Of a DNA stretch of 22,869 nt, positions 1,938 through 22,869 are shown one piece after another. The notes beneath the pieces are model-generated. The model saw only the letters and a program-made list of their open reading frames with translations, did no database searches and was not told where the DNA came from. Source of the DNA: an uncultured virus (IMG/VR IMGVR_UViG_2687453726_000008) (taxonomy: Duplodnaviria; Heunggongvirae; Uroviricota; Caudoviricetes); the IMG/VR virus record IMGVR_UViG_2687453726_000008. One strand, given 5' to 3'. How positions within the stretch are numbered: the stretch's first letter is position 1; each line of letters starts with the position of its first letter. The position numbers and the translations under genes are program-made.

Positions 1938-3387
<1,450 letters not shown>

Positions 3388-5569: not shown

Positions 5570-5759
5570 TATTCTATATGCTAGGATTAATTTCCTAGCT
5601 TTATTTTTATGTATAAAAATATTTTAAAATAATTAAAAAAGCGGCAGCCATAGCTGCCACCAGTCCATTTTGCATAATTAGTATAACTCAAATTTATTAA
5701 TAAGGTCAAGAAGAGATATGTAGTTGTTTTATTAATATTACTTATATTAAAGGAGTGAA

Positions 5760-6023: not shown

Positions 6024-6199
6024 CTTACTTTATAATTTCTTTATAAATAGTAGATATATTACAATCGGTAATACTTATATTTATTAATTCTCATTAAACA
6101 CCATAATTTACTTGATATTATCAATCTCTATATTAAAGGAATTTAGAAGAAAATGTAGAAATTAAAGTATTGAAAGTAAAATTTAAGGGGGATGTTTTA

Positions 6200-6637
6200 A
6201 TGAAGAACTTTAAGAGATTGATAGCTAGTTTTGTTACATTAATAACAATATTAGCAGCAACACCGTTAGCAGCACATGCAGAATGGAAAAATAATTCTAA
6301 CGGATGGTGGTATACAGAAGGAAACTCATGGGCTACTGGATGGAGATACATAGATGGGAACTGGTATTATTTCTATTCTAATGGTTACATGGCTAAAGAT
6401 TGTTATATTGGAGATTATTATTTACGTGGAGATGGAGCGTGGACAACTCCTCCTTCAAAGAGTAGTAGTGGAAGTACGGCAAGCAATACTAATAATGATC
6501 AAAGTCAAACAGTGTATGTATCAAAGAATGGTATATATCATTCAAGTCCAACTGCACATGGTATGAAATATTATACTACTATGTCTTTAGCTGATGCTCA
6601 AAAGGCAGGGTATAGAGCTTGTGAAAAATGTTATTAA
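6200..6637 (+). CDS. Secreted cell-wall (choline-binding-type) repeat protein with C-terminal Ada-like metal-binding domain
   Basis: Signal peptide ending AHA. Repeats GWWY, TGWRYIDGNWYYFYSNGYM. Ser/Thr/Asn linker. C-terminus VYVSKNGIYH...GYRACEKC. Confidence 0.82.
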   Translation: MKNFKRLIASFVTLITILAATPLAAHAEWKNNSNGWWYTEGNSWATGWRYIDGNWYYFYSNGYMAKDCYIGDYYLRGDGAWTTPPSKSSSGSTASNTNNDQSQTVYVSKNGIYHSSPTAHGMKYYTTMSLADAQKAGYRACEKCY

Positions 6638-6660
6638 TATAATAAAGGATAATATATAAA

Positions 6661-6708
6661 AAAATAGAGGTAGTACTAAATGTTTTTTTAGTACTATCCT
6701 CTATTTTT
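6661..6708 (+). terminator. Rho-independent terminator
   Basis: AAAATAGAGGTAGTACTAAA...TTTAGTACTATCCTCTATTTT. Confidence 0.8.
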
Positions 6709-6747
6709 ATTAGATGGAATAATTATGATTTCTTCAATAAATAATTA

Positions 6748-6775
6748 TTGACACAATATAGAAAGAATATACAAT
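6748..6775 (+). promoter_or_regulatory. Sigma-A-type promoter for the MBL-fold gene
   Basis: TTGACA-16-TACAAT. Confidence 0.6.
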
Positions 6776-6799
6776 AATAGTAGACAAAGGGGGATTAAA

Positions 6800-7759
6800 A
6801 TGACAAAAACTAAAAAAGTTATTAGCTTATTACTAACTTTATTATTTTCATTGTTTCTAATATCATGTGGGAAAAGTTCTCAAGTTAATAATGTTAATAA
6901 TACTAATAGTACAACAGCAGCTACTACAGAAACAAAAATAGAAACTCAAAAAACTTTAGAAGATTTAAAGATACATTATATAGATGTTGGACAAGGCGAT
7001 AGTGAATTAATTCAAATAGGAGATAAAAATATATTAATCGACGCAGGAACTAGTGATAAAAAGGCTTTAGATTATCTTAAATCAATTGGAATCACTACAA
7101 TAGATTATGCAATTGCAACTCATCCACATGAAGATCATATAGGTAGCATGGATGATGTTATCAATAATTTAAAAGTTGGAACTTTTTATGCACCTAAAGC
7201 AACAACAACAACTAAGACATTTGAGAATATGGTAGATGCTTTAAAAAACAAAAACTTGAAAATGAATGTACCAAAAGTAGGAGATCAAATTACGGTAGGA
7301 GACGCAACATTAACATTTTTAGCTCCTAATAGTGCTAAGTATGAAGATTTAAATAATTATTCTATTGTCTGCAAATTAAAATACGGTAATAATTCATTTA
7401 TATTTATGGGAGATGCGGAAGATGTAAGTGAGGGGGAGATACTACAAAAACAATTAGATATACAGGCTGATGTTCTAAAGGTTGGGCATCACGGAAGTCA
7501 TTCGTATACAACTCAAGCATTTTTAGATAAAGTAAACCCTAAATATGCAGTTATAAGTTGTGAAAAAGGTAATGATTATGGACACCCACACGAAGAAACT
7601 TTAGATAAACTAAATGCTAAAAATATTAATGTATTTAGAACAGATTTAGAGGGAACAGTAATAGCAACAAGTGATGGAACAAATATAACATTCAATGTTA
7701 AGCCAGTTGATAAGGCTAATGACATAGCTCCTAAAAAAACTAATAAAAAAGATAATTAA
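6800..7759 (+). CDS. ComEC/Rec2-like metallo-beta-lactamase-fold lipoprotein (probable nuclease/hydrolase)
   Basis: Lipobox LISC. Motifs IDVGQGD, THPHEDHIG (HxHxDH), MGDAE, KVGHHGS, YGHPH, RTDLEG. No transmembrane competence domain. Confidence 0.9.
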   Translation: MTKTKKVISLLLTLLFSLFLISCGKSSQVNNVNNTNSTTAATTETKIETQKTLEDLKIHYIDVGQGDSELIQIGDKNILIDAGTSDKKALDYLKSIGITTIDYAIATHPHEDHIGSMDDVINNLKVGTFYAPKATTTTKTFENMVDALKNKNLKMNVPKVGDQITVGDATLTFLAPNSAKYEDLNNYSIVCKLKYGNNSFIFMGDAEDVSEGEILQKQLDIQADVLKVGHHGSHSYTTQAFLDKVNPKYAVISCEKGNDYGHPHEETLDKLNAKNINVFRTDLEGTVIATSDGTNITFNVKPVDKANDIAPKKTNKKDN

Positions 7760-7765
7760 ATTTAT

Positions 7766-7797
7766 AAATCAGTAGTCATTATGTCTGCTGATTTTTT
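7766..7797 (+). terminator. Rho-independent terminator
   Basis: AAATCAGTAG...CTGCTGATTTTTT. Confidence 0.75.
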
Positions 7798-7973
7798 ATA
7801 TCCATATATTAATATTCTATAAAATAAATACAAATATAATTATGGGAAAATCATTAAGTTTCTATCATTTCATTTCGATAATTTGCATTATGTAATAATA
7901 TATTTTCTGGATAAAAACATATGAATTTAAAGAAAATAAATGATTATATGGAAAAAGTAAGAGGAAAATTTTC

Positions 7974-8024
7974 TTTACAAGATAACGAAGGTTAAATATA
8001 ATATATTTATGAGAACGTATGTTT
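7974..8024 (+). promoter_or_regulatory. Sigma-A promoter with LexA (SOS/Cheo) box
   Basis: TTTACA-17-TATAAT (7974-8002), then GAACgtatGTTT (8013-8024), one mismatch to GAAC-N4-GTTC. Confidence 0.65.
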
Positions 8025-8160
8025 GCATAAGACGTGGATTTTATTAAAGGAATCGAGAAAATATTGAACTTAAGTATGGTAGAAGGATGTAAGTGGATAC
8101 TATTTAAAATATGGTAAAGTTTATTTTTCTAATAATGTTGTGATAAAAGGAATGATAGCT

Positions 8161-8343
8161 ATGGTAATAAAAGATAAAGAATTAGATATAAATTTAGTAA
8201 GTGCTGTGGAGAAATATTTAAAACTAAATTACAGTGATCTATATAATAAGAATAATTTAGGAATAGTATTTGAAGAAGCTAAGGAAGATGATGAACTTAA
8301 GTTAAAAATATTTAATTCAATAAGAAGATTTATAATGAATTAA
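8161..8343 (+). CDS. Small hypothetical protein
   Basis: AAAGGA RBS favours ATG 8161. Confidence 0.65.
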   Translation: MVIKDKELDINLVSAVEKYLKLNYSDLYNKNNLGIVFEEAKEDDELKLKIFNSIRRFIMN

Positions 8344-8432
8344 CGTAAAAAGATATTTAATAACAAATTATCATTAGAAATTATATATTATGTTAAAATC
8401 AAATTGAAGATTTAGAGTTTTCTTAGAAATCA

Positions 8433-8477
8433 CCCAATAACGTAATGTGATATTTTATATCAGTATTCGTTATTGGG
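8433..8477. promoter_or_regulatory. Inverted repeat, candidate operator of the downstream XRE gene
   Basis: CCCAATAACG (8433-8442) and CGTTATTGGG (8468-8477), a perfect 10-bp IR. Confidence 0.5.
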
Positions 8478-8540
8478 ATAAGTATATAGAAATTTTTATA
8501 GTAAATAAATTTATAATTCCTGGTATAGGAGATGACACAT

Positions 8541-8759
8541 ATGATAAGAATTTGTTTATCTAGAGTATTAGGGGAAAAAAGATGGACTCAAGCTTATTTG
8601 GCTAAAAAAACTGAAATAAGGCCTAATACTATTTCGGAACTTTATCATGAATTAAATAATAGGGTGAATTTAGATCATATTGATAAAATATGTGAAGTGG
8701 TAGGATGTGATCTTACAGATATATTAAAATACGAACCTAATAAAAAGAAAACCGATTAA
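8541..8759 (+). CDS. XRE/Cro-C1-type HTH regulator (YozG-like)
   Basis: AGGAG RBS 9 nt before ATG 8541. Motif TQAYLAKKTEIRPNTISELY...LDHIDKICEVVGCDLTDILKY. Confidence 0.88.
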   Translation: MIRICLSRVLGEKRWTQAYLAKKTEIRPNTISELYHELNNRVNLDHIDKICEVVGCDLTDILKYEPNKKKTD

Positions 8760-8787
8760 TTCGTATTGCGAAAGTATTGGTTAATTA

Positions 8788-9874
8788 ACGTGAGTTCGAT
8801 GGAAAAATTTAAGGGATAAAAAATCCCATCAAAATGTTTTATTATATAAGTGCGACCAAATAAATAAAACAAAGGATGGGATTTTATGCAAAACTTATTA
8901 GTGGAAATATTTTATGATGTAGACAATTTTTGTATTGGATTTGAAAATTACTGTAAAAGTCATTTCCTAACGGAAAATAGCGACCGCAAATTTGCAATGA
9001 TTAAAAGTAAAACTTTATCATTAAGCGAAGTTATGACAATAACTATCTACTTTCATTTGTCAAATTACAGAACTTTTAAATCATACTATATTGAGCATGT
9101 GTCTACTGTTCTCAAACCGTATTTTCCTAAGCTTGTGAGCTACAATAGGTTTGTTGAATTAATGCAACAATCATTAGTTGCACTACTATTATACATGATG
9201 AAATTTAGAACTGGCAAGTGCACAGGAATTTCTTTTATCGATTCTACAACTTTGAATGTATGCCATAATAGAAGAATACACTCTCATAAGGTTTTTAAAG
9301 GAATTGCAGAACGTGGTAAAAGTTCAACGGGCTGGTTTTATGGTTTTAAGCTTCATCTTGTTGTTAACGATAAAGGGGATATTCTCTCTTTTTATCTAAC
9401 TCCGGGAAATGTAGATGATAGAGAAATTAAGACTATAGAAATATTAGCAAAAGATTTATTTGGAAAACTTTTTGGTGACAAAGGTTATTTATCTAAAAAG
9501 ATCTCCGATATTTTGTATTCCAAAGGCATTCAGCTTATAACAAAGATAAAGAAAAACATGAAAAATAAATTAATGTTAATGGAGGATAAAATTCTTCTTA
9601 GGAAAAGAGCTATCATTGAAACAATAAATGACCAACTAAAAAATATATGTCAGATAGAGCATAATCGACATAGAAGTTTTACTAATTTTGCGGTTAATAT
9701 AGTTTCAGGATTGATTTCATATAGTTTTCTTCCTAAGAAACCTTCTCTTAAGTTGGACAAATATCTAACTATGGAATAATTGGAATATCGAACCACAAGA
9801 TTACAAGGATACTTTTTTGCTTTTTTTCATAACCATATTTACCCATAAAATATTCTAGCTTTTCGAACTCACGT
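8788..9874 (+). mobile_element. IS982-family insertion sequence (1087 bp)
   Basis: Perfect terminal IR ACGTGAGTTCGA/TCGAACTCACGT. 6-bp target duplication TAATTA at 8782-8787 and 9875-9880. Confidence 0.93.
8886..9779 (+). CDS. IS982-family DDE transposase
   Basis: Motifs SYNRFVEL, FIDST, GWFYGFKLH, FGDKGY, RAIIETINDQLKN. Confidence 0.95.
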   Translation: MQNLLVEIFYDVDNFCIGFENYCKSHFLTENSDRKFAMIKSKTLSLSEVMTITIYFHLSNYRTFKSYYIEHVSTVLKPYFPKLVSYNRFVELMQQSLVALLLYMMKFRTGKCTGISFIDSTTLNVCHNRRIHSHKVFKGIAERGKSSTGWFYGFKLHLVVNDKGDILSFYLTPGNVDDREIKTIEILAKDLFGKLFGDKGYLSKKISDILYSKGIQLITKIKKNMKNKLMLMEDKILLRKRAIIETINDQLKNICQIEHNRHRSFTNFAVNIVSGLISYSFLPKKPSLKLDKYLTME

Positions 9875-9882
9875 TAATTAGT

Positions 9883-9918
9883 AAATCTCTTGTATTTAGA
9901 TAATACGAGAGATTTTTT
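9883..9918 (+). terminator. Terminator, probably the original terminator of the XRE gene displaced by IS982
   Basis: AAATCTCTTGTATT...AATACGAGAGATTTTTT immediately after the target duplication. Confidence 0.65.
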
Positions 9919-10101
9919 AGTTTGAATTTATAACGTTAGATTTGTATTTTGAAATTCGTAAAATTTGTACAACACGAACATTAATTCTAATATGCATCAT
10001 ATGAAGATTGAATAATGAGGTCCATAAAATAGTAGTTAGATACAAAATATGGTATAATATCCTAATATAGCAGAGGTAATAGGATGGAAGGAGTATAAAA
10101 T

Positions 10102-10779
10102 ATGAATGAACTATATTTAATGCAATTAGATTATTTATTAAGGCTCTTTATTGCTGCAATATGTGGGATGGCTATTGGATATGAAAGAAAGAATCGAATG
10201 AAAGAGGCTGGAATTAGAACACATTTTATTGTAGCTATAGGGGCAGCACTTATAATGATTATATCGAAATATGGATTTCAAGATCAGATAGGATGGCTCA
10301 ATATGTCTCTTGATCCATCACGTATAGCAGCTCAGGTTGTCACAGGAGTTGGATTCCTTGGTGCAGGGATAATTTTTATGCAAAAACAAACAATAGTAGG
10401 ATTAACAACGGCAGCAGGAGTTTGGGCTACAGCTGCTATAGGTTTAGCTATAGGTTCTGGACTTTATTTTGTTGGGATAGCAGCTACTGCTATTACTATA
10501 TTGGGACAAATACTTTTGCATGGTAAAATTAAATTTTTATCATCTCCAAGGACAGAGTCATTAGCGTTGCAGATTGTGGATGAGCCAGATGCTATTAAAT
10601 TTCTTCAAGAAATATTTGAAGATAATGAGATAACTATAATTAATTTAAAGAGCAAAAGAGATGAAAAATCCTTATTAATTGATTTGAAAATAGTGATAAG
10701 AATATATGAATCATTTAATATAATTAAATTCTTGAATATATTGCAAAGTAAAGATTTTGTAAAGTCTTTAGAATTTTAA
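10102..10779 (+). CDS. MgtC/SapB family membrane protein
   Basis: Motifs IGYER..AGIRTH, DPSRIAAQVVTGVGFLGAG, GLTTAAGVW. C-terminal ACT-like domain. AAGGAG RBS; TGGTATAAT promoter near 10050. Confidence 0.93.
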   Translation: MNELYLMQLDYLLRLFIAAICGMAIGYERKNRMKEAGIRTHFIVAIGAALIMIISKYGFQDQIGWLNMSLDPSRIAAQVVTGVGFLGAGIIFMQKQTIVGLTTAAGVWATAAIGLAIGSGLYFVGIAATAITILGQILLHGKIKFLSSPRTESLALQIVDEPDAIKFLQEIFEDNEITIINLKSKRDEKSLLIDLKIVIRIYESFNIIKFLNILQSKDFVKSLEF

Positions 10780-10830
10780 GGGAAAATAAATTGTGCTAAT
10801 AAAGAATAAATTTAATGAAAATAATGGATA

Positions 10831-10874
10831 TAAAAATACCGTAGTATTCAAAAATGAATTTGCGGTATTTTTTA
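10831..10874 (+). terminator. Rho-independent terminator
   Basis: TAAAAATACCGTA...TGCGGTATTTTTTA. Confidence 0.75.
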
Positions 10875-11126
10875 TAGTTTAAATATTATTTAACACTATG
10901 AACGTATGCAAATTTGTGTTCAGTGTATATTTAAAAATTTCTAAAATTACATATTTAGAAAAACTTTATATTTTTATACGCTTAAAATTAATAATAAAAT
11001 GTTATAGTATTTCTTATTTTGTTACTCTTCCACATAATATTAAGTGTTCATTAATGAATTATTAAACACTTAGACAATAAAGAGCATAATATAATCATAA
11101 GTTAATTTATGAACGGGGGAATATTA

Positions 11127-11528
11127 ATGGAGAATTCGACCATTGAAGAATTACAAGAACGAATTAGTTTATATAAAGATAAAATAGAGTTACTAACCAA
11201 AGATAATGTTAGACTATATAACGAAATAGAAGAAATAAAAGTTGATACAAATGTTATTAGCTCCAAGGAATATGATATTCTATTAGATAATATGGAATTA
11301 TTAAAATCGGAACTTGAAAAGTATAAGAATTTATATTTTCGCGAAAAACAGAAAAGTAAAGTTCATATAGTAAAGAAGTCAAAAATTGTTGGAAGAAAAC
11401 CTGTATCGGATGAATTAAGAAATAAAGTATTAGATTTAAAAAAGCAAGGATCAAATATAAGGAGCATTGCTAAGGAATTGAATATTGCGCTTGGTATTGT
11501 TCACAAAATAATTAATGAACAAAAATGA
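11127..11528 (+). CDS. Coiled-coil protein with C-terminal resolvase-type HTH
   Basis: GGGGGA RBS before ATG 11127. Motif GRKP...QGSNIRSIAKELNIALGIVHKII. Confidence 0.75.
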   Translation: MENSTIEELQERISLYKDKIELLTKDNVRLYNEIEEIKVDTNVISSKEYDILLDNMELLKSELEKYKNLYFREKQKSKVHIVKKSKIVGRKPVSDELRNKVLDLKKQGSNIRSIAKELNIALGIVHKIINEQK

Positions 11529-11567
11529 TAAGTGAAATATCTATACAATGCTAAAATAGAATGTATG

Positions 11568-11618
11568 AAAAGGAGCATATCAGGATAATTAAAAATTATC
11601 TTAATATACTCCCTTTTG
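11568..11618. terminator. Bidirectional terminator between convergent HTH genes
   Basis: AAAAGGAG...GATAATT-AAA-AATTATC...CTCCCTTTT imperfect stem. Confidence 0.55.
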
Positions 11619-11688
11619 TTTTATTTTTCTAAATTAAATTACCATAAAAGTCTAAATATAAATTTTCCTACATTATAATATAAGAAAT

Positions 11689-11970
11689 TTAATCAAGATA
11701 ATTTTTAGGAAGATTGAATGCTTTAATTATTTTCTTCTTTGATGGCAAACTTGGATTAAAAATTCCTCTTTCCCATTGACCAATAGTGACTACTTTTCTA
11801 TTGATCTTTTTACCGAATTCAATCTGGGAAAGTCCGCTAAGATATCTAAGCTTACGAATTCTATTTGTTATATTATCTTCAAGGTCATTAAAAATAGCAT
11901 TAGCTAAAAATTCCCTATAATTAACAGTAAATAGCTCGAATACACTTTTAAATGTTGCACTTTTATACAG
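11689..11970 (-). pseudogene. Start-less XRE-family HTH gene, interrupted at an att junction (not in ORF track)
   Basis: Manual translation: LYKSATFKSVFELFTVNYREFLANAIFNDLEDNITNRIRKLRYLSGLSQIEFGKKINRKVVTIGQWERGIFNPSLPSKKKIIKAFNLPKNYLD*. No in-frame ATG/GTG/TTG before the HTH; upstream in-frame TAA at 12037-12039. Confidence 0.8.
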
Positions 11971-11978
11971 GTTGCAAC
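11954..11978. other. Putative attR-like junction of the left element
   Basis: Abrupt switch into pilus-ATPase coding sequence. Local IR GTTGCA...TGCAAC. The arm at 11956-11970 is a 10/15 inverted match to 12066-12080. Confidence 0.55.
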
Positions 11979-12063
11979 CGGTTCTGGCAAAACTACTACA
12001 ATCTATACAATATTGAAAGAAATAGATTCCAAAGCTTTAAATATAACGACGTTGGAAGATCCA
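11971..12063 (+). pseudogene. Internal 31-codon fragment of a PilB/GspE/ComGA-family secretion/pilus ATPase gene
   Basis: Translates to VATGSGKTTTIYTILKEIDSKALNITTLEDP: Walker A (TGSGKTTT) plus Asp box (NITTLEDP) at family-typical spacing. Confidence 0.88.
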
Positions 12064-12081
12064 GAAAGTTTTAAATTGCAC
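12050..12081. other. Putative attL of the right-hand prophage
   Basis: ATPase homology stops right after EDP (12063-12064), about 20 bp beyond the integrase stop codon. Confidence 0.7.
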
Positions 12082-12084
12082 TAA

Positions 12085-13521
12085 CTAATAAATCAAGAGA
12101 TTATCACCATCCCATACTAATTTATCGAAAATTATGTTTATCAAATTTTGTTTATCCTCTAAATTTATTTTATTAAAATGTTTTACAAATTCATTTTTAG
12201 CTAGTTCTTTGTTTTTAAGCATTTCATCCTTTTTGCTTTTGTTATTTAGAACTATTTGATATTTGGTGTATTGCACATTTAGTTCTTCGATTTCGAGTGA
12301 GAGCTGTTCTGCTTTGTCTAACATAGATTTTGCAACAGCAGTTGAAGCAAGAGCAGACTTTTCCAAAAAACCATCATACATCTTTTTCTTTTTCTTAAGT
12401 TGTTTTTCTATATTTTCAGCAATATTAAATTCAATATTTTCATCATTTTTATTTAAGATTTTTTCAAGATTTCCGTTTTTTAAAGTAGAAAAAATTTTAT
12501 CTTCTATTTCATCAACTCTTATTCCTGAAAAACAATTTTTCTTGCATCTAAAATACATAGGCCTAGTTCCGTCTTTTCTTATGCTTCCATAGTTTATGCT
12601 CATTATTTTATTACATTGTTTACATATGATTTTATGTGCTAGCCAACTTTTAGTAGATATTCTAGGTGGTACATGTTCCAATGCCCTTAGCCTTTCTCTA
12701 ACTTTTATCCAAAGAGTAGAGTTTATTATTCCTTTATTTTGTGTTATTACCGCCAAATTAACCATTTTATCTTTTATAAACTTGTTGTATTTATAAGTCA
12801 TATAGCCATTACCATTAGGTTCTCCAATTACTTTATATCCAATAGTGGACAGGTATTTGTTGGAAATTTCATCTGATATTAAATAAATAGGATTTCTCAA
12901 AACAGTTCCTAAATTTCTAGGTGTTATTCCAGTTTCCTTAGAAATCGTCCACATAGAGTTACCAATAGAAAATTGGTTAAAAATATATAGGATTTCTTCT
13001 TTTTTCTCGATTTCCAAATACTTACCTCCAATTCCTTCAGAAGCAACACAACCATAAGGAGGAGTTCCTCCGCTCCAGCGACCTTGTTTAGCTAAACTAT
13101 ACATACCATCAATAGCACGTCTTTTAATATTTTCTCTTTCCATTTCAGCTAAAGAAGCTAATAACGTCATCATCATTTTTCCAGCAGGAGTTCTGGGATC
13201 ATAATTATCCTGAACACAAACCAAATCGACTCCAATTTTTTTTAACTCCTCAAATGTATTAAGGAAATCTAGAGTATTTCTAGCCATCCTATCAAGCTTA
13301 TAACAAGCAACAACATCAAATTCATTATTATGAGCATTAGCTATCATTTGTTTAAATGCCGGTCTGTTTATGCTTCCGCCGCTAAACCCATCATCAGTAT
13401 ATACAACAAACTTGCAGTTTTCTTTATTGAAATAATTTTTTATTATTTCAAGTTGCGCATCTATTGAAATACTATTTTCATCCCCTTTTACAGACTTTCT
13501 TAAATATGCTGCGATTTTCAT
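12085..13521 (-). CDS. Large serine recombinase (phage integrase)
   Basis: Motifs YLRKS (catalytic Ser), DDGFSG, KLDRMARN, LRNPIY, zinc ribbon CKQC...YFRCKKNC, coiled coil. AAAGGGTG RBS favours ATG 13521. Confidence 0.96.
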   Translation of the reverse strand: MKIAAYLRKSVKGDENSISIDAQLEIIKNYFNKENCKFVVYTDDGFSGGSINRPAFKQMIANAHNNEFDVVACYKLDRMARNTLDFLNTFEELKKIGVDLVCVQDNYDPRTPAGKMMMTLLASLAEMERENIKRRAIDGMYSLAKQGRWSGGTPPYGCVASEGIGGKYLEIEKKEEILYIFNQFSIGNSMWTISKETGITPRNLGTVLRNPIYLISDEISNKYLSTIGYKVIGEPNGNGYMTYKYNKFIKDKMVNLAVITQNKGIINSTLWIKVRERLRALEHVPPRISTKSWLAHKIICKQCNKIMSINYGSIRKDGTRPMYFRCKKNCFSGIRVDEIEDKIFSTLKNGNLEKILNKNDENIEFNIAENIEKQLKKKKKMYDGFLEKSALASTAVAKSMLDKAEQLSLEIEELNVQYTKYQIVLNNKSKKDEMLKNKELAKNEFVKHFNKINLEDKQNLINIIFDKLVWDGDNLLIY

Positions 13522-13536
13522 AAAATTCACCCTTTC

Positions 13537-13589: not shown

Positions 13590-13892
13590 TTAGATTACAT
13601 TAGTTGCAAATTGGATTAAGCGTTGCAAAGCTATTGGGTTATTTTCAAATTCAATAGCTTCGCTTTCACATTCAGGAGTTTCTAAGTCGCTATTAAAATG
13701 TCTTAAGTGAATTAATTCATGTAGTAATTTCTTTATATTATATTCATAAGTCAAATTCGAATTTAGAATAATAACTTTTTGCCCGTTGTTGTCAATTGTT
13801 GCCCCTGTGAAAGTACATTCTAAATTAGTAAAAACAACTCTCAATTCTCCACAATCAATCATCTTTTTTGCATTTTTCATTATGTTAACCAT
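13590..13892 (-). CDS. ImmA/IrrE-family metallopeptidase (anti-repressor)
   Basis: IILNSNL...LLHELIH (HExxH)...CESEA. Located between repressor and integrase. Confidence 0.85.
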   Translation of the reverse strand: MVNIMKNAKKMIDCGELRVVFTNLECTFTGATIDNNGQKVIILNSNLTYEYNIKKLLHELIHLRHFNSDLETPECESEAIEFENNPIALQRLIQFATNVI

Positions 13893-14257: not shown

Positions 14258-14284
14258 TAAAATCACCTTTCTATTTTCCTGTTT

Positions 14285-14787: not shown

Positions 14788-14983
14788 AATTGTGATTTCC
14801 AGATCACCCGAAAAGTCTTACTAAACTACGCAACATAATTTTCAAATAGTTAAGCAAGAAATTTAATTAATATAACAAATCTTATTTATCATATCTCACA
14901 ACTCGAAGCAATTACATTCAGTAATTTTCAGCTAAGAGTAAATATTAAATTTAAGTATAGAAGGAAGTGAGGAAATTATAAAA

Positions 14984-16063
14984 ATGAATGATTTAACTAT
15001 TGACAATGAGTTTAAAGACTTACTACCTCCATTATCAGAGGAACAAAAGGAAGAGCTCGAAAAAGACATAATTAAAAATGGTTGCATAAATTCACTAACT
15101 GTATGGAAGAACATTTTGATAGATGGCCATCACAGGCATGAGATATGCACAAGGAATAATATTCAATTCGATATAGTTGAAATGGAATTTAAGGACAGGC
15201 TCGAGGCTATGGAATGGATTTGGATGAATCAAAAAAATAGAAGAAATTTAACTAAGTATGAGTTAGCACAAATAGCACTGAAGTTTAAGCCAGTAATAGA
15301 AGCTAAAGCTAAAGAAAATCAATTATCAACACTTAAACAAAATACCGTTTTGACGAAATCATCAAAACGGGAAGATGAAAGAAAAGAGTCTGTTGAAGAA
15401 AACACCAACCTAGTTGATTCTGATGGAAATCAACCGATAGATGGACAAATTGATTTTACAGAAATAAATGAAGAAAAAGTGAAAAAGGTAGAGCCTATAA
15501 ACACTAGAAAGGAGATAGCAAAAATAGCAGGAGTTTCAGAGGATACAATCCATAAGGTTGAAGTTATCGAAGAAAAAGCTCCAGAAGAAATTAAGCAGCA
15601 AGTGAAGAAGGGAGACATAACAATTAATAGTGCTTATGTTCTTACTAAATCAGCTATAGAGGCAGACAAAAAGAACGCTGAATATGAAAAAGAGTACCAG
15701 GAGCAGTTGGAAAAAGAACAGCAAGAGAATGAAGAAAAGAAGAAGTTAGAAGAAATTCAAAAGAACCTTCCAGAAAATGCAGTTGTATTAGATAAATTCA
15801 GGAAACCAAAAGAAGCTCATATTTTTGGAATTGAAGACTTCAATAACCTAACAATGGATCAATTTAATGATTGTATAAAGCATTCTAAAAAATATCGTGA
15901 TGCAATTAGTAAAGTTGCATTATTAAGTACAGATATAGAGGCATTAATGGCATGGGGAGCAATAGCCAATACTCCAGATATTGTAGAAATAGAGCTACAA
16001 GATATTAATTCAGCTATCCAAAATTTAATTAAGATACAGAACTATTTTAAAGGAGGCAAGTAA
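14984..16063 (+). CDS. Phage ParB/Srx N-terminal-domain protein with HTH and coiled-coil C-terminus
   Basis: Motifs LPPLSEEQ..LEKDIIKNG, LIDGHHR, NQKNRRNLT, HTH TRKEIAKIAGVSEDTIHK. Confidence 0.82.
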   Translation: MNDLTIDNEFKDLLPPLSEEQKEELEKDIIKNGCINSLTVWKNILIDGHHRHEICTRNNIQFDIVEMEFKDRLEAMEWIWMNQKNRRNLTKYELAQIALKFKPVIEAKAKENQLSTLKQNTVLTKSSKREDERKESVEENTNLVDSDGNQPIDGQIDFTEINEEKVKKVEPINTRKEIAKIAGVSEDTIHKVEVIEEKAPEEIKQQVKKGDITINSAYVLTKSAIEADKKNAEYEKEYQEQLEKEQQENEEKKKLEEIQKNLPENAVVLDKFRKPKEAHIFGIEDFNNLTMDQFNDCIKHSKKYRDAISKVALLSTDIEALMAWGAIANTPDIVEIELQDINSAIQNLIKIQNYFKGGK

Positions 16064-16064
16064 T

Positions 16065-16466
16065 ATGAGTGAAGCATTAGAAAAAAAGGCCAAAGAAAAG
16101 ATACTAGAACAGATGGACGAGCTTGGCGGAGAAATAACTACAGATGACGTTGTAGAGCTATTAAGACCACACTATATATTTAATATCCGTAAGCTTAGGG
16201 AACAAGCGTTAAGAAGGACAGCCAATAACTTAATGGCAACATACCGTGATAATAAAGGTGTTAGAACTTGTTTTAGCTGTAAGGATGATAGCGGAAATTC
16301 AAAATATTTTAATATCGAAACTACAACTGATTTAAAAGCATTAAAAAACATTGAAATCCAGTTAAATAAAAAATATAAAGGTCTTAATATTTCTAAGAAA
16401 AAAGTTCAAAGAAGAAGAGACGAGCTTTCAGGACAAGTATCATTTAAAGAAGTTGAAAATTCATAG
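16065..16466 (+). CDS. Hypothetical phage protein
   Basis: AGGAGG RBS; adjacent to the ParB-like gene stop. Confidence 0.8.
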   Translation: MSEALEKKAKEKILEQMDELGGEITTDDVVELLRPHYIFNIRKLREQALRRTANNLMATYRDNKGVRTCFSCKDDSGNSKYFNIETTTDLKALKNIEIQLNKKYKGLNISKKKVQRRRDELSGQVSFKEVENS

Positions 16467-16485
16467 ATTGAGGAGGAATTATAAG

Positions 16486-16926
16486 ATGCAAAAATACAGA
16501 TTACACGTTGATGAGACAATAAACAGATTAAACTTCATTGATATTGAAACAGAGCTAAATGAAAAAGAAGTTGATGCATTACTTACTAAAATTGAAAAAG
16601 AGGATATTACAAGTGCATTAGATTTAAAGCGAAGATTAGAGACACAAGGTGTGCAAGTAAAATCAATAAGAGTAGATAATGGACCTTATTACAGAAGAGC
16701 TGAAACATTGGAAATTGAGGAGCTAGAAGATGTCAAAAGGAAAGGAATTATGGTTAAGTTCAAAGCTTGTGATTTAAGCAAATCAATAATTGAACAAGCT
16801 ATCGATGAACTAAGGGAAAGGATGCATATTAGTATTTCAGTAAATGGGCCACAGTCTGACACAACTATTAAAATAAGTCAGCAACTGGATGAATTGATTG
16901 TTGTAGAAATGAGGTCTAGGATATGA
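16486..16926 (+). CDS. Phage protein with C-terminal Spo0E-like domain
   Basis: GAGGAGG RBS favours ATG 16486. C-terminus IDELRERMH...TIKISQQLDELI matches the Spo0E SQxLD signature. Confidence 0.72.
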   Translation: MQKYRLHVDETINRLNFIDIETELNEKEVDALLTKIEKEDITSALDLKRRLETQGVQVKSIRVDNGPYYRRAETLEIEELEDVKRKGIMVKFKACDLSKSIIEQAIDELRERMHISISVNGPQSDTTIKISQQLDELIVVEMRSRI

Positions 16927-17111
16927 AAAAATGTGAAGATTGTGATGAATGCACATATATAGGCGAAGGTGATTATGTCTGCATTAAGGATGAACCTAAA
17001 ATTGTTATTACTGAATTTATTATTGCAACAGATGATTATGGACAATGTGGAAATAAAAAAGCTACCAAGAACCCCGACCAAAGCGTTCAAAGTAGCTACA
17101 ATAAGTTTTGA
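16923..17111 (+). CDS. Small Cys-rich phage protein
   Basis: CEDCDEC..GEGDYVC; ATGA overlap with the upstream gene. Confidence 0.7.
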   Translation: MKKCEDCDECTYIGEGDYVCIKDEPKIVITEFIIATDDYGQCGNKKATKNPDQSVQSSYNKF

Positions 17112-17154
17112 AAATATTTCAAGAACATTATAACACATGAGAGGAGGAATTCAA
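17052..17154 (-). ncRNA. Putative antisense RNA in the early operon (with its promoter)
   Basis: Minus-strand TTGAAT-16-TATAAT with extended TG (17154-17127), then stem AGCUAC...GUAGCU plus U-tract, loop CUUUGGUCGG. Confidence 0.6.
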
Positions 17155-17376
17155 GTGTTAGTTAGATGTCAGTGGAAAACTTGCATTAATTACAAGGATG
17201 GAATGTGTAAAGCTCCTGCAATAGAACTTAAGAGCTTTGACTATGAAGAAGATAATGAGGAACTTGAGGGATTAAAATGCGACAGTTATAAATATGATTC
17301 CTTTTGGATGTGTAAAGAAGGTAGAGAAGTTGACTCTAAAGATTTTAATAAGGAGGCTGATGTAGTTGGCAAATAA
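17155..17376 (+). CDS. Small Cys-rich phage protein (DUF1540-like)
   Basis: GTG 17155 after GAGGAGG. Motif VRCQWKTCINYKDGMCKAPAI. Confidence 0.7.
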   Translation: MLVRCQWKTCINYKDGMCKAPAIELKSFDYEEDNEELEGLKCDSYKYDSFWMCKEGREVDSKDFNKEADVVGK

Positions 17377-18199
17377 TCAGATACAAGCATATGTGATAGG
17401 TGCATTAAATGAGAAATTAACTAGTATGTTAGAAATAGAAAAGAAGGCACTCCCAGAAGGTTTTAATGGACTTAGGTTTAAGCAAAATGTTCTAAGGGTT
17501 TTAAATACTGTTAACTTAGAAAATATGAAAGGGCAGGAGTTTAACCTTGCTAAATGTATAATGCGTGGAGCATATCTGGACTTAGATTTTGCTAACAATG
17601 AATGCTATGTAATTACCTACAAGGGCAAACCGGAATTTATGACAGATTACAAAGGCGAAACCAAGCTTGTTAGGAAGTTTAGTTCTAAAAAAATTAAAGA
17701 TATTTATGCAAAGCTAGTTCGTTATGGTGATGAGTTTGAAGAAGGTGTTGACCATGGTAAGCCATATGTAAACTTTAAGCCAAAGCCATTTAATAATGAT
17801 GATATTACGGGAGTTTTTGCAGTTGTTTATTACGAAGATGGTGCGATGGAATACGAAACAATGTCTAAGGAAGAGGTTGAGTATATTCGAGACAATTGGA
17901 GCAAAAAGGATAAGTATGGGAAGTTTTCTGCTGCATGGGTAAAGAGCTTTGGTGAAATGGCAAAAAAGACTGTTTTGAGAAGACTTTGCAAACATATAAA
18001 TATTGATTTTGATAACATTAAGCAGCTTGAAGCATGGGAAGAAGGTTCGGATATGGAATTTGAAAATGAAAAACCCAAAGAAGCTGCTACAGAAAAAAGT
18101 GATCTTGAAAAAGAATTAGAGGAGAATGAGGACATTGTTAAACAAACTGATTTTGTAGATACTCCATTTGAGGAGGTTAATGAATATGGTGATAACTAA
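17366..18199 (+). CDS. recT: RecT-family single-strand annealing protein
   Basis: Motifs ECYVITY, DYKGE, MSKEEVEYIR, W...FGEMAKKTVLRRLCK; acidic tail. Confidence 0.92.
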   Translation: MANNQIQAYVIGALNEKLTSMLEIEKKALPEGFNGLRFKQNVLRVLNTVNLENMKGQEFNLAKCIMRGAYLDLDFANNECYVITYKGKPEFMTDYKGETKLVRKFSSKKIKDIYAKLVRYGDEFEEGVDHGKPYVNFKPKPFNNDDITGVFAVVYYEDGAMEYETMSKEEVEYIRDNWSKKDKYGKFSAAWVKSFGEMAKKTVLRRLCKHINIDFDNIKQLEAWEEGSDMEFENEKPKEAATEKSDLEKELEENEDIVKQTDFVDTPFEEVNEYGDN

Positions 18200-18953
18200 A
18201 GAGAATTATTACAGCATAGAAGCCGATTTAAGCACTATGTCAGTATCACAGTACAAACTATTTAAGCAATGTGAATTAATGGCTATGGCAAAGCTAAAAG
18301 GGGAATATAAACAGAGTGAAAGTGATGCATTCCTATTAGGCAAATATATTCATTCATGGAGTGAAGGAACTTTAGATGATTTTAAAAAAGAAAATCCAAG
18401 CTTATATTCAACTCAAGGCAAAACTAAAGGGGAATTAAAATCAACTTTTAAAGTAGCTGAAACAATGGTTAAGTCCTTAGCAGATGATTCGAATTGTATG
18501 AAATTTTTGCAAGGCAAAAAAGAAGTAATCATTCAAGGCGAATTATTTGGTATTAAGTGGCGTGGAATGGTTGATGTATTGAACTTAGAAAAAGGATTCT
18601 TTACAGATTTAAAGACAACCCAAGGAATCCATAAAAAATATTGTGGATTGACCTTTATTGAGCATTACGGGTATATAGAACAAATGGCAATTTATAGAGA
18701 GTTAATTAAACAACAATTTGGCAAAGACTTAATTCCATACATTGTTGCAATAGAAAAGAATGATAATCCGCTTAAAGCAATAATTAAAGTAGATGAAAGG
18801 TACACCACACCAAAGCTTGAGGAAATTGAGTACAACATCGGGCGCATTATAAAAGTTAAAAGTGGAGAAGAAAATCCAATTGCGTGTGGTTTATGTGATT
18901 ATTGCAGAGCTAATAATAAGGTAACTCAAATTTTAACAATAGAAGAATTGTAG
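18186..18953 (+). CDS. PD-(D/E)XK exonuclease (RecE/DUF3799-like), RecT partner
   Basis: Motifs ENYYS, MSVSQYK, G.VD, DLKTT, Y..QMAIY, CGLCDYC. GAGGAGG RBS favours ATG 18186. Confidence 0.88.
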   Translation: MVITKENYYSIEADLSTMSVSQYKLFKQCELMAMAKLKGEYKQSESDAFLLGKYIHSWSEGTLDDFKKENPSLYSTQGKTKGELKSTFKVAETMVKSLADDSNCMKFLQGKKEVIIQGELFGIKWRGMVDVLNLEKGFFTDLKTTQGIHKKYCGLTFIEHYGYIEQMAIYRELIKQQFGKDLIPYIVAIEKNDNPLKAIIKVDERYTTPKLEEIEYNIGRIIKVKSGEENPIACGLCDYCRANNKVTQILTIEEL

Positions 18954-18961
18954 GTGATTGA

Positions 18962-19756
18962 ATGGCTAAAGTGTACTATTGGCTTAAATTAAATAAGGAT
19001 TTTTTCAAAGGTAAAGAAATTAAGAAACTAAGGAAAATAGCTGGTGGAGATACTTACACAATAATATATTTGAAGCTTCAATTACTTAGTCTTAAGGATG
19101 AAGGAAAGCTGTATTTTGATGGAATAGAAGAAACATTTGCGGAAGAATTAGCCTTAGAACTAGATGAAGATTCAGACAATGTAAGTTTTGTATTAATGTA
19201 TCTAAAAAAGTGCGGATTACTGAAAGAAATTTCAGATTCAGAGTTACTTTTGAATGAGGTTCCAACGTCAATAGGAAAAGAGACAGATAAGGCTCAACTA
19301 ATGAGAAATAAACGCTTTAAGAATAAAAAATTAATAGAAAGTGGTAACAATGTTACCGAAGAGTTACCACCTGTTACTTTTTGTTACACAGAGATAGAGA
19401 TAGAGAAAGAGATAGAGAAAGATATAGATATAAATAAAAAAACTAAAAAAAGAAAAATAACTTCGATTGATTCTTTAATTAACAACTATACCAGTAATGA
19501 AGAATTGAGAAATACTTTAGTTGATTTTATAAAAATGAGAAAGTCAATTAAAAAACCTATGACGGATAGAGCTTTACAGATAATGCTTAAGAAGCTAAAG
19601 GGCTTATCGGAAAATGAAGAAATACAAATTAAAATTTTAGAAAATAGCATAGAGCATTGTTGGCAAGGCATATTCGAACTTAAAGAAGACCATAAGAACC
19701 AGACAACTATATCTAACAATAAAAAACAATATGATGCATTTCAATTTGATGAATAG
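18962..19756 (+). CDS. Phage replisome organizer / replication initiator
   Basis: N-terminus YYWLKLNKDFF...IKKLRKIAGGDTYTIIYLKL; EIEIEKEIEKDID linker. Confidence 0.9.
   Translation: MAKVYYWLKLNKDFFKGKEIKKLRKIAGGDTYTIIYLKLQLLSLKDEGKLYFDGIEETFAEELALELDEDSDNVSFVLMYLKKCGLLKEISDSELLLNEVPTSIGKETDKAQLMRNKRFKNKKLIESGNNVTEELPPVTFCYTEIEIEKEIEKDIDINKKTKKRKITSIDSLINNYTSNEELRNTLVDFIKMRKSIKKPMTDRALQIMLKKLKGLSENEEIQIKILENSIEHCWQGIFELKEDHKNQTTISNNKKQYDAFQFDE
19343..19431. repeat. Putative phage replication origin (iterons within rep)
   Basis: GGTAAC plus GTTAC at 19352, 19363, 19373 and 19383, followed by GAGATA/GAGAAA repeats and an A-rich tract. Confidence 0.7.
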
Positions 19757-19774
19757 CTAAATAGAGGTGATTAG

Positions 19775-21088
19775 ATGGATACAGAACAGTTACAAATACT
19801 ACCGCAAAATATAAGAGCTGAACAAGAACTCTTATCAGGTATATTTTATAACCCTAAGATAATAGTACAAGCAGTAAATGAGTTGAAAACAAATGATTTT
19901 TATAGATCAAGCCATCAATTAATATTTAACGCAATGTGTGCATTATTTGCAGACGGGAAAGAAATAGGAATAACGCCCATTATAGAGGTTTTAGGAAAAG
20001 ACAGTCTAGTATACGTCGGAGGGGTTTCATACCTCACAGAACTAATGACAGGTGGGTTTAAATTAAATGTAAAACAATACGTGGACATTATAAAAGATAA
20101 GTCCTTCAGAAGAAAGGCGATAAAATCATTAAATTCAGCTATGAATGCATTGTATGACGATAAAATTAAACCAGATGTTTCAATTAGTAAAATGTCAAAT
20201 GAATTAAGCCAAACAGAAGACAAAAGCCAAATACTAAATGATACGCAGTTACTTAATGCCACAATATCAAAGATAGAAGAAAGATATGCTAATGGTGGAG
20301 ATATTCCAGGCATGAAAACAGGATTTCATGACTTTGATAGAGCAACAAATGGAATGAATAAAGGAGACTTATTTGTAATCGGTGCTCGTCCATCAATGGG
20401 GAAAACAGTTACTGCTTTAAACATAGCTGACGGACTAGCGAAAAACGGTAATAATGTGCTTGTATTTGAAATGGAAATGGTAGAAACAGCATTGGGAAAT
20501 AGGAGATTGGCTTTCAATTCAAATGTTGAAGCACAGAAATTAAAAACAGGAAAACTTAATGCAGAAGAGTTTGAAAGAATACTTATGGCAGCTAACAAAT
20601 TATCTAAGAGAAATGGAATATTTACAGATTGCAGCAGCTACCAAAACACATTAACTATAAAAGCTAAGACTAAAGCAGTAAAACAAACTCATGGTTTAGA
20701 TGTGGTAATTGTAGATCACTTAACGTTAATGGACATACCTAACACTGGAAATAGATCGTCAGATATTGGTGAAGTTACAAGACAATTAAAGATGATGGCT
20801 AAAGAATTAGAAGTAACAGTAATCGTATTATCACAATTATCTAGAAAAGTTGAAGAGAGGGCAGATAAGAGACCAACATTGGCGGATTTAAGAGAATCTG
20901 GGAATATTGAACAAGATGCAGACTTGATAATGTTCTTGTATCGTGATGAATATTACAACAAAGAAACAGAAGACAGAAATATTATTGAATGGATAATAGC
21001 GAAGCAAAGAGATGGAGCAGTTGGAACACTTAAATTCTATTACTTGGATAAGCTCCAAAAGATCGCAAATATAGATTGTTTAAGGTAA
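19775..21088 (+). CDS. dnaB: DnaB-family replicative helicase (phage)
   Basis: Motifs GARPSMGKT, IVDHL, LSQLSR, DLRESGNIEQDAD, AKQRDG. Confidence 0.95.
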   Translation: MDTEQLQILPQNIRAEQELLSGIFYNPKIIVQAVNELKTNDFYRSSHQLIFNAMCALFADGKEIGITPIIEVLGKDSLVYVGGVSYLTELMTGGFKLNVKQYVDIIKDKSFRRKAIKSLNSAMNALYDDKIKPDVSISKMSNELSQTEDKSQILNDTQLLNATISKIEERYANGGDIPGMKTGFHDFDRATNGMNKGDLFVIGARPSMGKTVTALNIADGLAKNGNNVLVFEMEMVETALGNRRLAFNSNVEAQKLKTGKLNAEEFERILMAANKLSKRNGIFTDCSSYQNTLTIKAKTKAVKQTHGLDVVIVDHLTLMDIPNTGNRSSDIGEVTRQLKMMAKELEVTVIVLSQLSRKVEERADKRPTLADLRESGNIEQDADLIMFLYRDEYYNKETEDRNIIEWIIAKQRDGAVGTLKFYYLDKLQKIANIDCLR

Positions 21089-21099
21089 AGGAGAAATAA

Positions 21100-21495
21100 A
21101 TGGTAGTAGTTGAAGGAACAATAAAAGGTAAAGGACGGCCTAGATTTTTTAATGGACATGCAACAACTCCTGGAGATACAGTGACTTATGAAAATTGGGT
21201 AAGAATTTGTTATCAGCAGCAGGATAGAAGGTATTTAGAAGGTTCTATAAAGGCAACAATTATAGCTTACTACAAAATACCTAAGAGTTATTCAAAGAAA
21301 AGGTTAGAAGCGATAAGGGCGGGGATAGAGCGTCCACAGAAGAAACCTGATATTGATAATGTAGCTAAGGTTATTTTGGATAGTTTAAATAAAATTGCCT
21401 ATAAGGACGATAGCCAGATCACAGAATTGATTGTTAAGAAAGTATTTACTGAAGAATTAGAAAGAGTCGAATTTGAATTGGAGGTAATAAGATAA
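21100..21495 (+). CDS. rusA: RusA-family Holliday junction resolvase
   Basis: Motifs GKGRPRF, KKPDIDNVAKVILDSLNKIAYKDDSQI. Confidence 0.93.
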   Translation: MVVVEGTIKGKGRPRFFNGHATTPGDTVTYENWVRICYQQQDRRYLEGSIKATIIAYYKIPKSYSKKRLEAIRAGIERPQKKPDIDNVAKVILDSLNKIAYKDDSQITELIVKKVFTEELERVEFELEVIR

Positions 21496-21920
21496 TGGGT
21501 AAAACAAGTGAATTAGTGGATTTAAGTAAGAGAGTATTAAGTATAGATATTGATAGTCCTGTATTTAATGCAATGTTAACTGATTTAAATGAGGAAATAC
21601 AAAGAGTTATAAAAAGTGTATATAATGGTGAATTTGCAAGTGGGGAAATATCTTTAAAATTGGATTTAAAAATAAGAGATGCTTATAAGGAAATACCTGC
21701 AACAGATGATTACGGGAATATAATAAATGATAAATATGAATATAAAAAACCTACTTTTGAACACAAGATAACATCAACTTTAAAGAAGCAATATAATTCA
21801 AAAGGTTGCTATGACGAGAATAAAGAAGTTGTATGGGATGATATAAATGGAAAATATGTAGTGCAACCACTAATAAATCCTCAAATGAATTTCATGGATA
21901 TAAATAAGAACAGAGGGTAA
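21495..21920 (+). CDS. Hypothetical phage protein
   Basis: GGAGGT RBS; TAATG coupling with rusA. Confidence 0.8.
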   Translation: MGKTSELVDLSKRVLSIDIDSPVFNAMLTDLNEEIQRVIKSVYNGEFASGEISLKLDLKIRDAYKEIPATDDYGNIINDKYEYKKPTFEHKITSTLKKQYNSKGCYDENKEVVWDDINGKYVVQPLINPQMNFMDINKNRG

Positions 21921-22027
21921 GTGAGTTCTTGCAGGACTAGGAGTGTTAGCAGCAGGGATTACAATTGCTAATGTTAAGGTTACTGCAAATTAAGAGGGGA
22001 TTATTCCCCTCAACATAATAAATTGAG

Positions 22028-22683
22028 GTGAGAATATTGGAAAAACCAATTTTATTTAATACAGATATGGTTAAGGCAATTCTTGAAGGAAGAAAAACAA
22101 CCACGAGAAGAATTATAAAGAATGTTGGGAATAGAGAACTACTAGAACATGAAGGCGAATATTACAAATTTGGATATAGATCTAATGCAGTTGCTGGAAC
22201 AATATACAGTGCTATTAATTGGTGCAAACCCAAGTTTGAAATTGGAGACATACTTTATGTTAGAGAAACATGGTTGGCGCATTCAGAGGAGTTAATACAC
22301 TAGCTTTTAAATATAAGGCAGATAGTGAGGTTAATGATTGTATATCTTTTACAAAAGAGAGATTTAATAAATTCTATAAATTTGCAGATCAAGAAAAGTG
22401 GCAGCCGTCATTATTTATGCCGAAAGAAGCAGCAAGGATATTTCTAAAAATAAAAAAGATTTATCCTGAAAGATTAAAAATGATTGAAGCAGGTGAATGT
22501 AAAAAGGAAGGAATAAAGCTAGATTTTGAAATTACTGACTCATTTACTGCAAGTGAATATATATCAGCTTTTGAAGATTTATGGAATAGCACTCTAAATA
22601 AATCTCAAGTCAAATATATGTGGCATGAAAATCCTTGGGTATGGGTAATTGAATTTGAAAGGGTGGGGAAATATGAAATTTAA
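22028..22683 (+). pseudogene. ASCH/PUA-like phage protein split by a frameshift
   Basis: N-half KPILFNTDMVKAILEGRKTTTRR...LYVRETW and C-half KWQPSLFMPKEAARI...NPWVWVIEFE belong to one protein family but lie in different frames (shift ~22271-22300). Confidence 0.8.
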
Positions 22684-22869
22684 ATCGAATTAGAAGAAAA
22701 AGTAGTTTACAGACATACTTTAACAGTTGAAGCTGACTCAGATGTTGAAGTAGAGTATGCGTTAGATGTTTTGGAAAGAGACGGTATGCATCCAGATGAT
22801 ATTGAGGGATATTTAAGCGATAACAATGTGAAAATACTTGAATTTGATAAGGACGAAAGTGGAGAAGTT
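22673..22869 (+). pseudogene. Partial phage gene with an apparent 1-bp deletion near its start
   Basis: GGGTGGGG RBS then ATG AAA TTT AAA hits a stop. The adjacent frame is open from 22684 to the window end (IELEEKVVYRHTLTVEAD...). Confidence 0.6.

Follow-up and report, generated by a model that had tools for sequence, protein, structure and literature searches.

A remnant of a clostridial pilus ATPase gene between two prophage junctions

How a 90-bp piece of a bacterial pilus gene comes to lie between two blocks of mobile DNA is the question raised by IMG/VR virus record IMGVR_UViG_2687453726_000008 (Caudoviricetes), the whole 22,869-nucleotide stretch of which is called the window below. 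The piece belongs to a gene encoding a 454-aa ATPase of the GspE/PilB/ComGA family, which heads an operon in close relatives of the Clostridium beijerinckii group, and it is bounded by the attachment junctions of a left element (L) and a right prophage (R). We consider it probable that this pilus or competence gene has been the target of repeated integration into its conserved motif-coding DNA, the remnant having been left between two independent insertions; this is a known phenomenon, here in an unusually stacked three-site form.

The remnant and the gene it comes from

An original prediction, made from the letters of the window, had described a scrap of PilB/GspE/ComGA ATPase between unrelated mobile DNA, and the remnant is indeed genuine host DNA of 90 bp. 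Positions 11971-12063 translate as VATGSGKTTTIYTILKEIDSKALNITTLEDP, and the 49-aa stop-to-stop frame around them scores 33.5 bits with the Pfam family T2SSE (PF00437; gathering cut-off 24.9, E 2.3e-8) over profile positions 147-180 of 370, with the GSGKTTT P-loop (Walker A) included, which places it in the family. The last 29 residues of this frame match residues 228-256 of P0002, a 454-aa 'GspE/PulE family protein [Clostridium beijerinckii]', at 29 of 29 positions (best of 3 hits among 69 candidates in a search against longer proteins). At the DNA level, 89 of 90 bases of 11975-12064 (98.9%, E 1e-39) are those of 10680-10769 in L016, a relative with the intact gene, and over the 10 kb on each flank of that gene L016 has no match to the rest of the window. 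The predicted translation of 11971-12063 therefore stands, while the host-derived extent is corrected to 11975-12064 (plus strand, codons ~228-256, from Walker A GSGKTTT through LEDP), the first two codons, GTT GCA (11971-11976), being mostly the attachment arm of the left element. Stops at 11932-11934 and 12082-12084 delimit the frame, which lacks a start codon, and codons ~228-256 are all that the window holds of a translatable ATPase gene. As had also been foreseen, homology to the intact gene ends, at 12064, some 20 bases from the stop codon of the R recombinase (12085-12087).

Both junctions recur in an independent isolate record (L009/G002; 96.9% identity over 3.7 kb), and in the public sequencing run X1 a single 5,088-base Logan contig spans the remnant with 2.1 and 2.9 kb of flank, which answers the concern, raised with the original prediction, that the arrangement might be an artefact. 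Window and G002 differ at three positions inside the remnant, all silent, a divergence in line with the regional 3%; the idea of independent insertions in the two was dropped, three silent remnant differences against one in 131 flanking bases giving p ~0.19 (an estimate).

In L016 the frames of the operon overlap or abut in the order ATPase, T2SSF (GspF/ComGB-like) platform protein, N-methyl pilin and small proteins weakly resembling ComGD, ComGE and ComGF, with three pilin-like genes, and efp and spoIIIAA lie downstream. The ATPase of an intact relative scores 372 bits with T2SSE and 288.4 bits with the NCBIfam ComGA model (NF041000), under its cut-off of 300 and so outside that family, and its score is nearer the cut-off for ComGA than for GspE or PilB; the platform protein reaches 113.5 bits with ComGB (cut-off 240), and the ComGD/E/F-like pilins all fall under their cut-offs. 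These profiles suggest a Com-like type IV pilus operon whose membership of a competence system is not established, and the efp/spoIIIAA neighbourhood is no evidence of a sporulation function. Upstream of the intact ATPase, a sequence of ~85 bp (L016:8922-9013) has a summed X1 contig depth of 4439 against ~60 and many contigs end there, which marks it as a dispersed intergenic repeat in tens of copies.

Three integration sites in one gene

The left junction is the attR of L (11954..11984), in which a phage arm, GTTGCACTTTTATACAGGTTG, is followed by the overlap CAACCGGTTC in common with attB; the same arm is kept at attR in genomes G004 and G029. DNA to the left of 11975 holds the motif GTTGCACTTTTATACA and, at the right end of L, a small minus-strand XRE-type helix-turn-helix (HTH) frame (11689..11940, Pfam HTH_3, E 6.6e-8) that is homologous to and collinear with the attR-proximal open reading frame (ORF) in G004, G029 and G093. 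In the window this frame lacks an ATG, GTG or TTG codon ahead of the HTH, and no ORF of at least 50 aa with a common start is found in the region; the G004 homologue is a 90-aa ORF with a TTG start.

In G004 the HTH frame and motif directly precede ATPase residues 224-454, and on another contig residues 2-233 adjoin a 552-aa protein with Resolvase, Recombinase and Zn_ribbon_recom domains, the make-up of a large serine recombinase (N-terminal Resolvase, C-terminal recombinase and zinc ribbon, about 450-600 aa). On the closed chromosome of G029 the gene halves lie 62.5 kb apart with a prophage between them, whose recombinase (72% identity to that of G004) stands at attL and whose HTH end lies opposite, the interior carrying endolysin and Ig-like tail-fibre genes. 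The ATPase 5' half of G093 likewise adjoins an L-type recombinase, and the expectation that a 5' part would be found beyond the far end of L, with the recombinase of that element alongside, is thus borne out in all three genomes. An inverted partner of the attR arm, TGTAT(A/G)AAAGTGCAAC, is present at attL in each of them. When attL and attR of G004 and G029 are joined on paper, the uninterrupted Walker A sequence is recovered as attB, and the rebuilt attP has inverted arms of 15-16 bp, GTTGCACTTT(T/C)ATA / TAT(A/G)AAAGTGCAAC, of which the window holds the attR arm. The deletion of one T and the GTTGCAC/GTTGCAAC repeat proposed earlier need no special explanation, since GTTGCAC is the outer part of an arm of the L attP and its true inverted partner, GTGCAAC, lies at the other end of the element. 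Site 1 is thus placed at the Walker A codons P227-S230, where the prophage that integrates is ~60 kb long and encodes the 552-aa large serine recombinase. The viral collection, scanned with a profile of L-type recombinases, gave 57 loci, none of them a C. beijerinckii copy.

The same junction is present in L120, a 293-kb contig with 98.3-98.9% identity to window 6893-12064 and a synonymous divergence of 0.024 from genome G013, and there the ATPase continues unbroken from codon 223 to 454; L insertion therefore exists without R in the same species.

The right junction is the attL of R (12061..12090), with the crossover CCAG at codon 256/257, between EDP and V, and then the phage arm AAAGTTTTAAATTGCACTAAC. 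It adjoins a minus-strand gene (12085..13530) for a 481-aa protein with Pfam hits to Resolvase (E 1.5e-38) and Zn_ribbon_recom (E 1.1e-3), which qualifies as a large serine recombinase though the Recombinase domain PF07508 is undetected; it is 95-96% identical in L009 and L010 and ~31% identical to the L-type recombinases. Its closest relative in a genus-wide search (126 of 130 genomes scored) is that of G064, at 60-61% identity, which abuts ATPase residues 3-257, residues 250-450 lying on another contig behind the other phage arm. The G064 junction falls at the same codon as that of the window; attL and attR together rebuild LE(E/D)PVE, crossing over between P and V, and the rebuilt attP is a clear dyad with inverted arms AATAATTG(C/T)TATTTA. 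For R in the window's own lineage the attachment evidence is attL, and the attP reconstruction comes from G064. Site and recombinase hence travel together across species whose ATPases are ~50% identical, and site 2 lies between P256 and V257 in the LEDPVE box, used by a prophage with a 481-aa recombinase. The predicted structure, two different serine-recombinase elements set close together in one pilus ATPase gene, is thereby supported, the distance between them being 90 bp.

A third site appears in other strains. In G010 (L100) ATPase residues 1 to ~303 are followed by a Phage_integrase protein (tyrosine integrase) and a prophage related to R, and in G045 residues 4-307 are followed by an integrase 62.5% identical to that of G010. 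Site 3 accordingly lies at ~E301-S304, just after Walker B, and is used by tyrosine-integrase prophages (T).

Public runs were searched with window 11500-12600, giving 24 rows, 20 of them with part of the stretch and 3 flagged as possible sources; contigs of X1, X2, X3 and X10 were aligned on L016:7000-14000, X1 being the probable source strain. Run shares below one half and runs not so aligned were left out of the evidence. In X1 the native upstream flank and the 5' half up to L016:10689, which overlaps the remnant start at 10680, stand on a 9.6-kb contig that continues into at least 7.9 kb of other DNA, again as predicted for the far side of the left element; the 5' halves of X3 and X10 end at 10689 too. 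The 5.1-kb contig holds the remnant (10680-10769), its flanks ending at the insertion sequence (IS) of the window and near 14935. A 33-kb contig has the downstream operon and the gene from L016:10904 on, and a further 127 bases that do not align. The 12-bp core where the L100 junction departs from the intact gene has its left edge at 10904, and since the 3' part of X1 begins inside this core, a junction of the site-3 type is also present in the probable source strain. The ATPase pieces seen in X1 are therefore residues 1 to ~229, 228-256 and from ~302 on: the 3' part that had been predicted is there, and it starts ~45 codons further on than expected. The X1 contigs listed include no piece over L016:10770-10903 (codons 257-301), a lack of cover that proves nothing, and the depth tally leaves no room for these codons beyond one contig joining two conserved motifs, which is likely a paralogous PilB. 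A 3' start at the tyrosine-integrase site could reflect a recombined R/T hybrid prophage or three separate prophages. Scanning the viral collection for the pattern of the ATPase 3' part gave 0 hits, and its one match to the 5' pattern, L102, proved a chance match with no ATPase.

Orthologues of the ATPase (at least 72% identity) were surveyed in 130 genomes, of which 122 were scored and 8 were not. Seventeen of the 122 have one, in a single piece in 13 (one with an internal stop) and interrupted in 4, at site 1 in G004, G029 and G093 and at site 3 in G045. Taking all records together, site 1 is used in these three genomes, L120 and the window, site 2 in the window, G002 and G064, and site 3 in G010, G045 and X1. 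The gene has at least three such sites; the three described fall within ~230 bp of it, each over DNA for a conserved ATPase motif (Walker A, EDP box, Walker B). Integration is targeted at the pilus gene: orthologous integrases enter its coding sequence at the same site in several species, and unrelated integrases converge on it. Within one species the gene is intact in G013, holds L only in L120, T only in G010, and L and R in the window.

Where L stands alone, in G029 and G004, both halves of the gene are retained and precise excision would restore the frame. The 3' half in G093 (L145, G093:C58:89572-90158) has a frame change at residues ~296-301, and for G045 no ATPase 3' part is found at E<=1e-15. 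The frame change of G093 sits at the tyrosine-integrase site and could be simple decay or the scar of an earlier site-3 event.

State of the two elements in the window

Window positions 6130-11970 are collinear with the right-end accessory region of L in G029 and G093, which has the same choline-binding protein, MBL-fold, HTH_26 and HTH_3 genes. Up to 11688 this moron-like region (6130..11688, matching G029:C1:3306910-3312859 and G093:C58) encodes in the window a choline-binding protein (6170-6637), an MBL-fold protein (6800-7759), an HTH_26 protein (8532-8759), an MgtC protein (10102-10779) and a 139-aa HTH protein (11109-11528). The next genes inward in G029 and G004 are for endolysin, holin and tail-fibre-like proteins; in the window, Pfam hits and ORFs to the left of the accessory region reveal no lysis or structural genes, the DNA there holding small ORFs, an IS3-family transposase and a periplasmic binding protein gene.

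The accessory region is itself interrupted by an IS (8788..9872, plus strand) with a DDE_Tnp_1_3 transposase ORF (8886-9779, Pfam E 1.1e-75), which is absent from L009 and L120, where 8787 is joined to 9873, and has copies 99% identical in G013 (three) and G127 (one). The IS3-family element (1933-3392), with a single 444-aa frame (2018-3352) fusing HTH and rve domains, is absent from the syntenic region of G006, in which 1941 is joined to 3393.

Window 41-10927 is collinear, with gaps, with this G006 region and in parts with G013, the ATPase being intact elsewhere in both genomes. In the closed genome G013 the orthologue of 42-1085, the binding-protein region (C1:3576388-3577807), lies 1.70 Mb from the ATPase and in opposite relative orientation, and the region is a deletion derivative in which only window 41-826, 1445-1513, 7732-7800 and 7864-8344 are present. 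This distance and orientation hint at a large inversion or translocation in the lineage of the window. We infer that the L prophage has recombined here with a related remnant, for example by inversion, and that its two attachment ends may have ceased to be a pair open to simple excision. Window 1-41 is the reverse complement of bases 1-41 of G001, an 85-kb record with two tandem tyrosine-integrase prophages; in some related genome a G001-type prophage pair abuts the periplasmic binding protein gene at 42-1085.

Beyond its recombinase, R has a lysogeny module recognised by Pfam hits, with an M78/ImmA-like protein (13590-13892, minus strand), a cI-like HTH protein (13907-14266, minus) and a Cro-like HTH protein (14449-14643, plus). 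Early and replication genes follow on the plus strand (14860..22869), with Pfam hits to Spo0E-like, RecT, PD-(D/E)XK, replisome organiser, DnaB and RusA proteins, and the prophage extends past the end of the window. Of the proteins encoded at 16453-16926 and 17137-17376, one has a Spo0E-like sporulation-regulator domain and the other is a DUF1540 protein; sporulation of the host could be modulated by a Spo0E-like phosphatase brought in by the phage.

Positions 14860-22869 are 97% identical to G001:34692-42713, where the prophage has a tyrosine integrase and adjoins a tRNA-like fragment; near-identical phage bodies thus carry swapped integration modules. R, the G001 prophage and the site-3 prophage of G010 are mosaics with common segments of 75-97% identity. 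G001 was set aside as nearest record of the window, sharing only the R replication module and the 41 bases and having neither a serine recombinase nor an ATPase piece. Megablast of the whole window against the phage collection gave no match.

Repeated insertion weighed against programmed excision

Repeated targeted insertion, the reading favoured here, starts from identities, junctions, attachment-site structure and a distribution across genomes that are observed. In the window the attR of L is followed by the 90 bp that separate sites 1 and 2, and these by the attL of R. R would have entered an allele already split by L, of which L-only strains are examples, or the two may have come in either order. 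The ATPase gene would be inactivated and the pilus operon severed from its promoter; after the first phage had broken the gene, later insertions would cost the host nothing and elements could pile up, and phages may gain by disabling a competence-type pilus. The gene looks knocked out rather than held under a deliberate two-key switch.

Several points weigh against this reading. The halves in G004 and G029 and the pieces in X1 are still open and little changed, the 3' piece of X1 differing from L016 at 66 positions with no gaps over 3.1 kb, and such halves fit a recent insertion but also genes kept usable. The ratio of non-synonymous to synonymous substitution rates (dN/dS) between split halves and intact relatives is 0.05-0.09, as it is between intact genes (0.04-0.08), and with values of 0.04-0.13 throughout it did not discriminate split from intact copies. 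The anti-competence rationale is drawn by analogy, the ComGA and ComGB scores being under the NCBIfam cut-offs, and the far ends of L and R in the source strain come from one contig-level view. Regulated or reversible excision of these elements may still occur.

The nearest precedents for the reading are mobile genetic elements that target competence genes. Integration has been described into comYC, comFA (at two sites, by two integrases), comK and comM (Croucher et al. 2016, PMC4774983) and, in Staphylococcus pseudintermedius, into comGA (cited in PMC12378983), and has been interpreted as elements disabling the transformation that could delete them (PMC4774983, PMC12378983). As in those cases, temperate elements lie inside the coding sequences of a Com-type pilus, the position of insertion is kept from species to species along with orthologous integrases, and integrases that are unrelated meet in a single gene. 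The present case differs in having two serine integrases and one tyrosine integrase at three sites in ~230 bp within one species group, in the occupation of two or three sites at once, and in its host, a solventogenic Clostridium whose pilus of this type may or may not take up DNA. In the literature we found no paper on prophage integration into this Clostridium pilus ATPase gene.

The original prediction went further and proposed a two-input AND switch, in which, as with skin, SP-beta and the Listeria comK phage, the operon would be on only when all elements are out. Each element does adjoin its own recombinase at conserved attachment sites, the halves are intact in G004, G029 and X1 with no raised dN/dS, and serine-recombinase prophages are known to reconstitute genes, as for skin in sigK, SP-beta in spsM (SprA/SprB) and gin in gerE (PMC4191935, PMC5499854, PMC5595907). 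Like these, the elements described here are prophages or remnants that split a host gene and carry a large serine recombinase at one of their ends, the halves being preserved where the element is complete (G029, G004). Genes with several elements, all of them excised, are known as well: in heterocyst-forming cyanobacteria 10 of 87 interrupted genes hold several and nifD up to four (PMC4874684), and multiply interrupted genes are described in Calothrix NIES-4101 (PMC11249958). There is therefore precedent for short stretches of a gene being left between elements that each have a recombinase of their own.

Excision of skin, SP-beta and gin is tied to sporulation and their targets are mother-cell genes, and in the cyanobacteria all elements leave during a terminal differentiation in which the gene is essential; here the target is not a known terminal-cell gene and heads a pilus operon, and occupancy varies by strain within one species (G013, L120, G010 and the window). 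Prophage phi10403S in comK of Listeria monocytogenes ('active lysogeny') is a single element for which reversible excision has been shown experimentally. No other kind of model is known in which a non-terminal cell could regain the gene. The two cases are alike in that a prophage lies inside a competence-related gene, and differ in that the Listeria prophage is single and its reversible excision demonstrated (cited in PMC12378983). Against the switch stand further the L element of the window, truncated or rearranged and without its phage body, the 1.70-Mb distance and opposite orientation of the neighbouring binding-protein gene in G013, which suggests rearrangement, and a third junction type, the source-strain 3' part beginning at a tyrosine-integrase site, which implies either a third event or a hybrid prophage. 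Signs of decay are seen in interrupted copies of other species, in the frameshifted 3' half of G093 and the missing 3' part in G045. The absence of the L phage body from the window and the site-3 start of the source-strain 3' part make a clean two-step restoration unlikely, and we find a programmed multi-input switch of this kind unsupported and hold it to be improbable. For single, complete elements, the intact halves and unremarkable dN/dS would still allow one.

A little less probable again is that the nested prophages form a natural multi-input recombinase logic gate, the pilus being regained only when every element has been excised, for example in cells that survive an SOS-type induction. 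If true, the gate would couple prophage escape to a burst of horizontal gene transfer, through a pilus for DNA uptake or motility.

Contradicted by the evidence, and very improbable, is the second explanation offered originally, a single attachment site with 93 bp caught between tandem related prophages or in an aberrantly excised genome. Tandem related prophages do occur in the group, G001 having its two tyrosine-integrase prophages end to end, one of them 97% identical to R over 8 kb. The two junctions, however, differ in arms and recombinases (~31% identity), the left type is found alone in L120, G004 and G029 and the right type alone in G064, and the remnant, collinear with the intact gene, fills exactly the interval from one mapped crossover to the other. 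An artefact in which assembly or circularisation joined unrelated contigs through a short shared sequence is hardly credible, the double junction also standing in the independent isolate record with its three silent differences, the remnant lying on one X1 contig and the left junction recurring in L120.

Repeated targeted insertion, if it is the right account, offers in a small space a natural case in which several unrelated integrases have converged on a single gene, and would extend to solventogenic clostridia the reported tendency of mobile genetic elements to disable genes of Com-type pili. It brings two new sets of serine recombinase, attB and attP, with natural occupied and empty sites, as raw material for genome-engineering tools, and a warning that the strains of an industrial Clostridium are not alike in the ability of this pilus operon to function. 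It also suggests a rule, by which the first prophage to break a gene opens it to others as a landing pad without cost.

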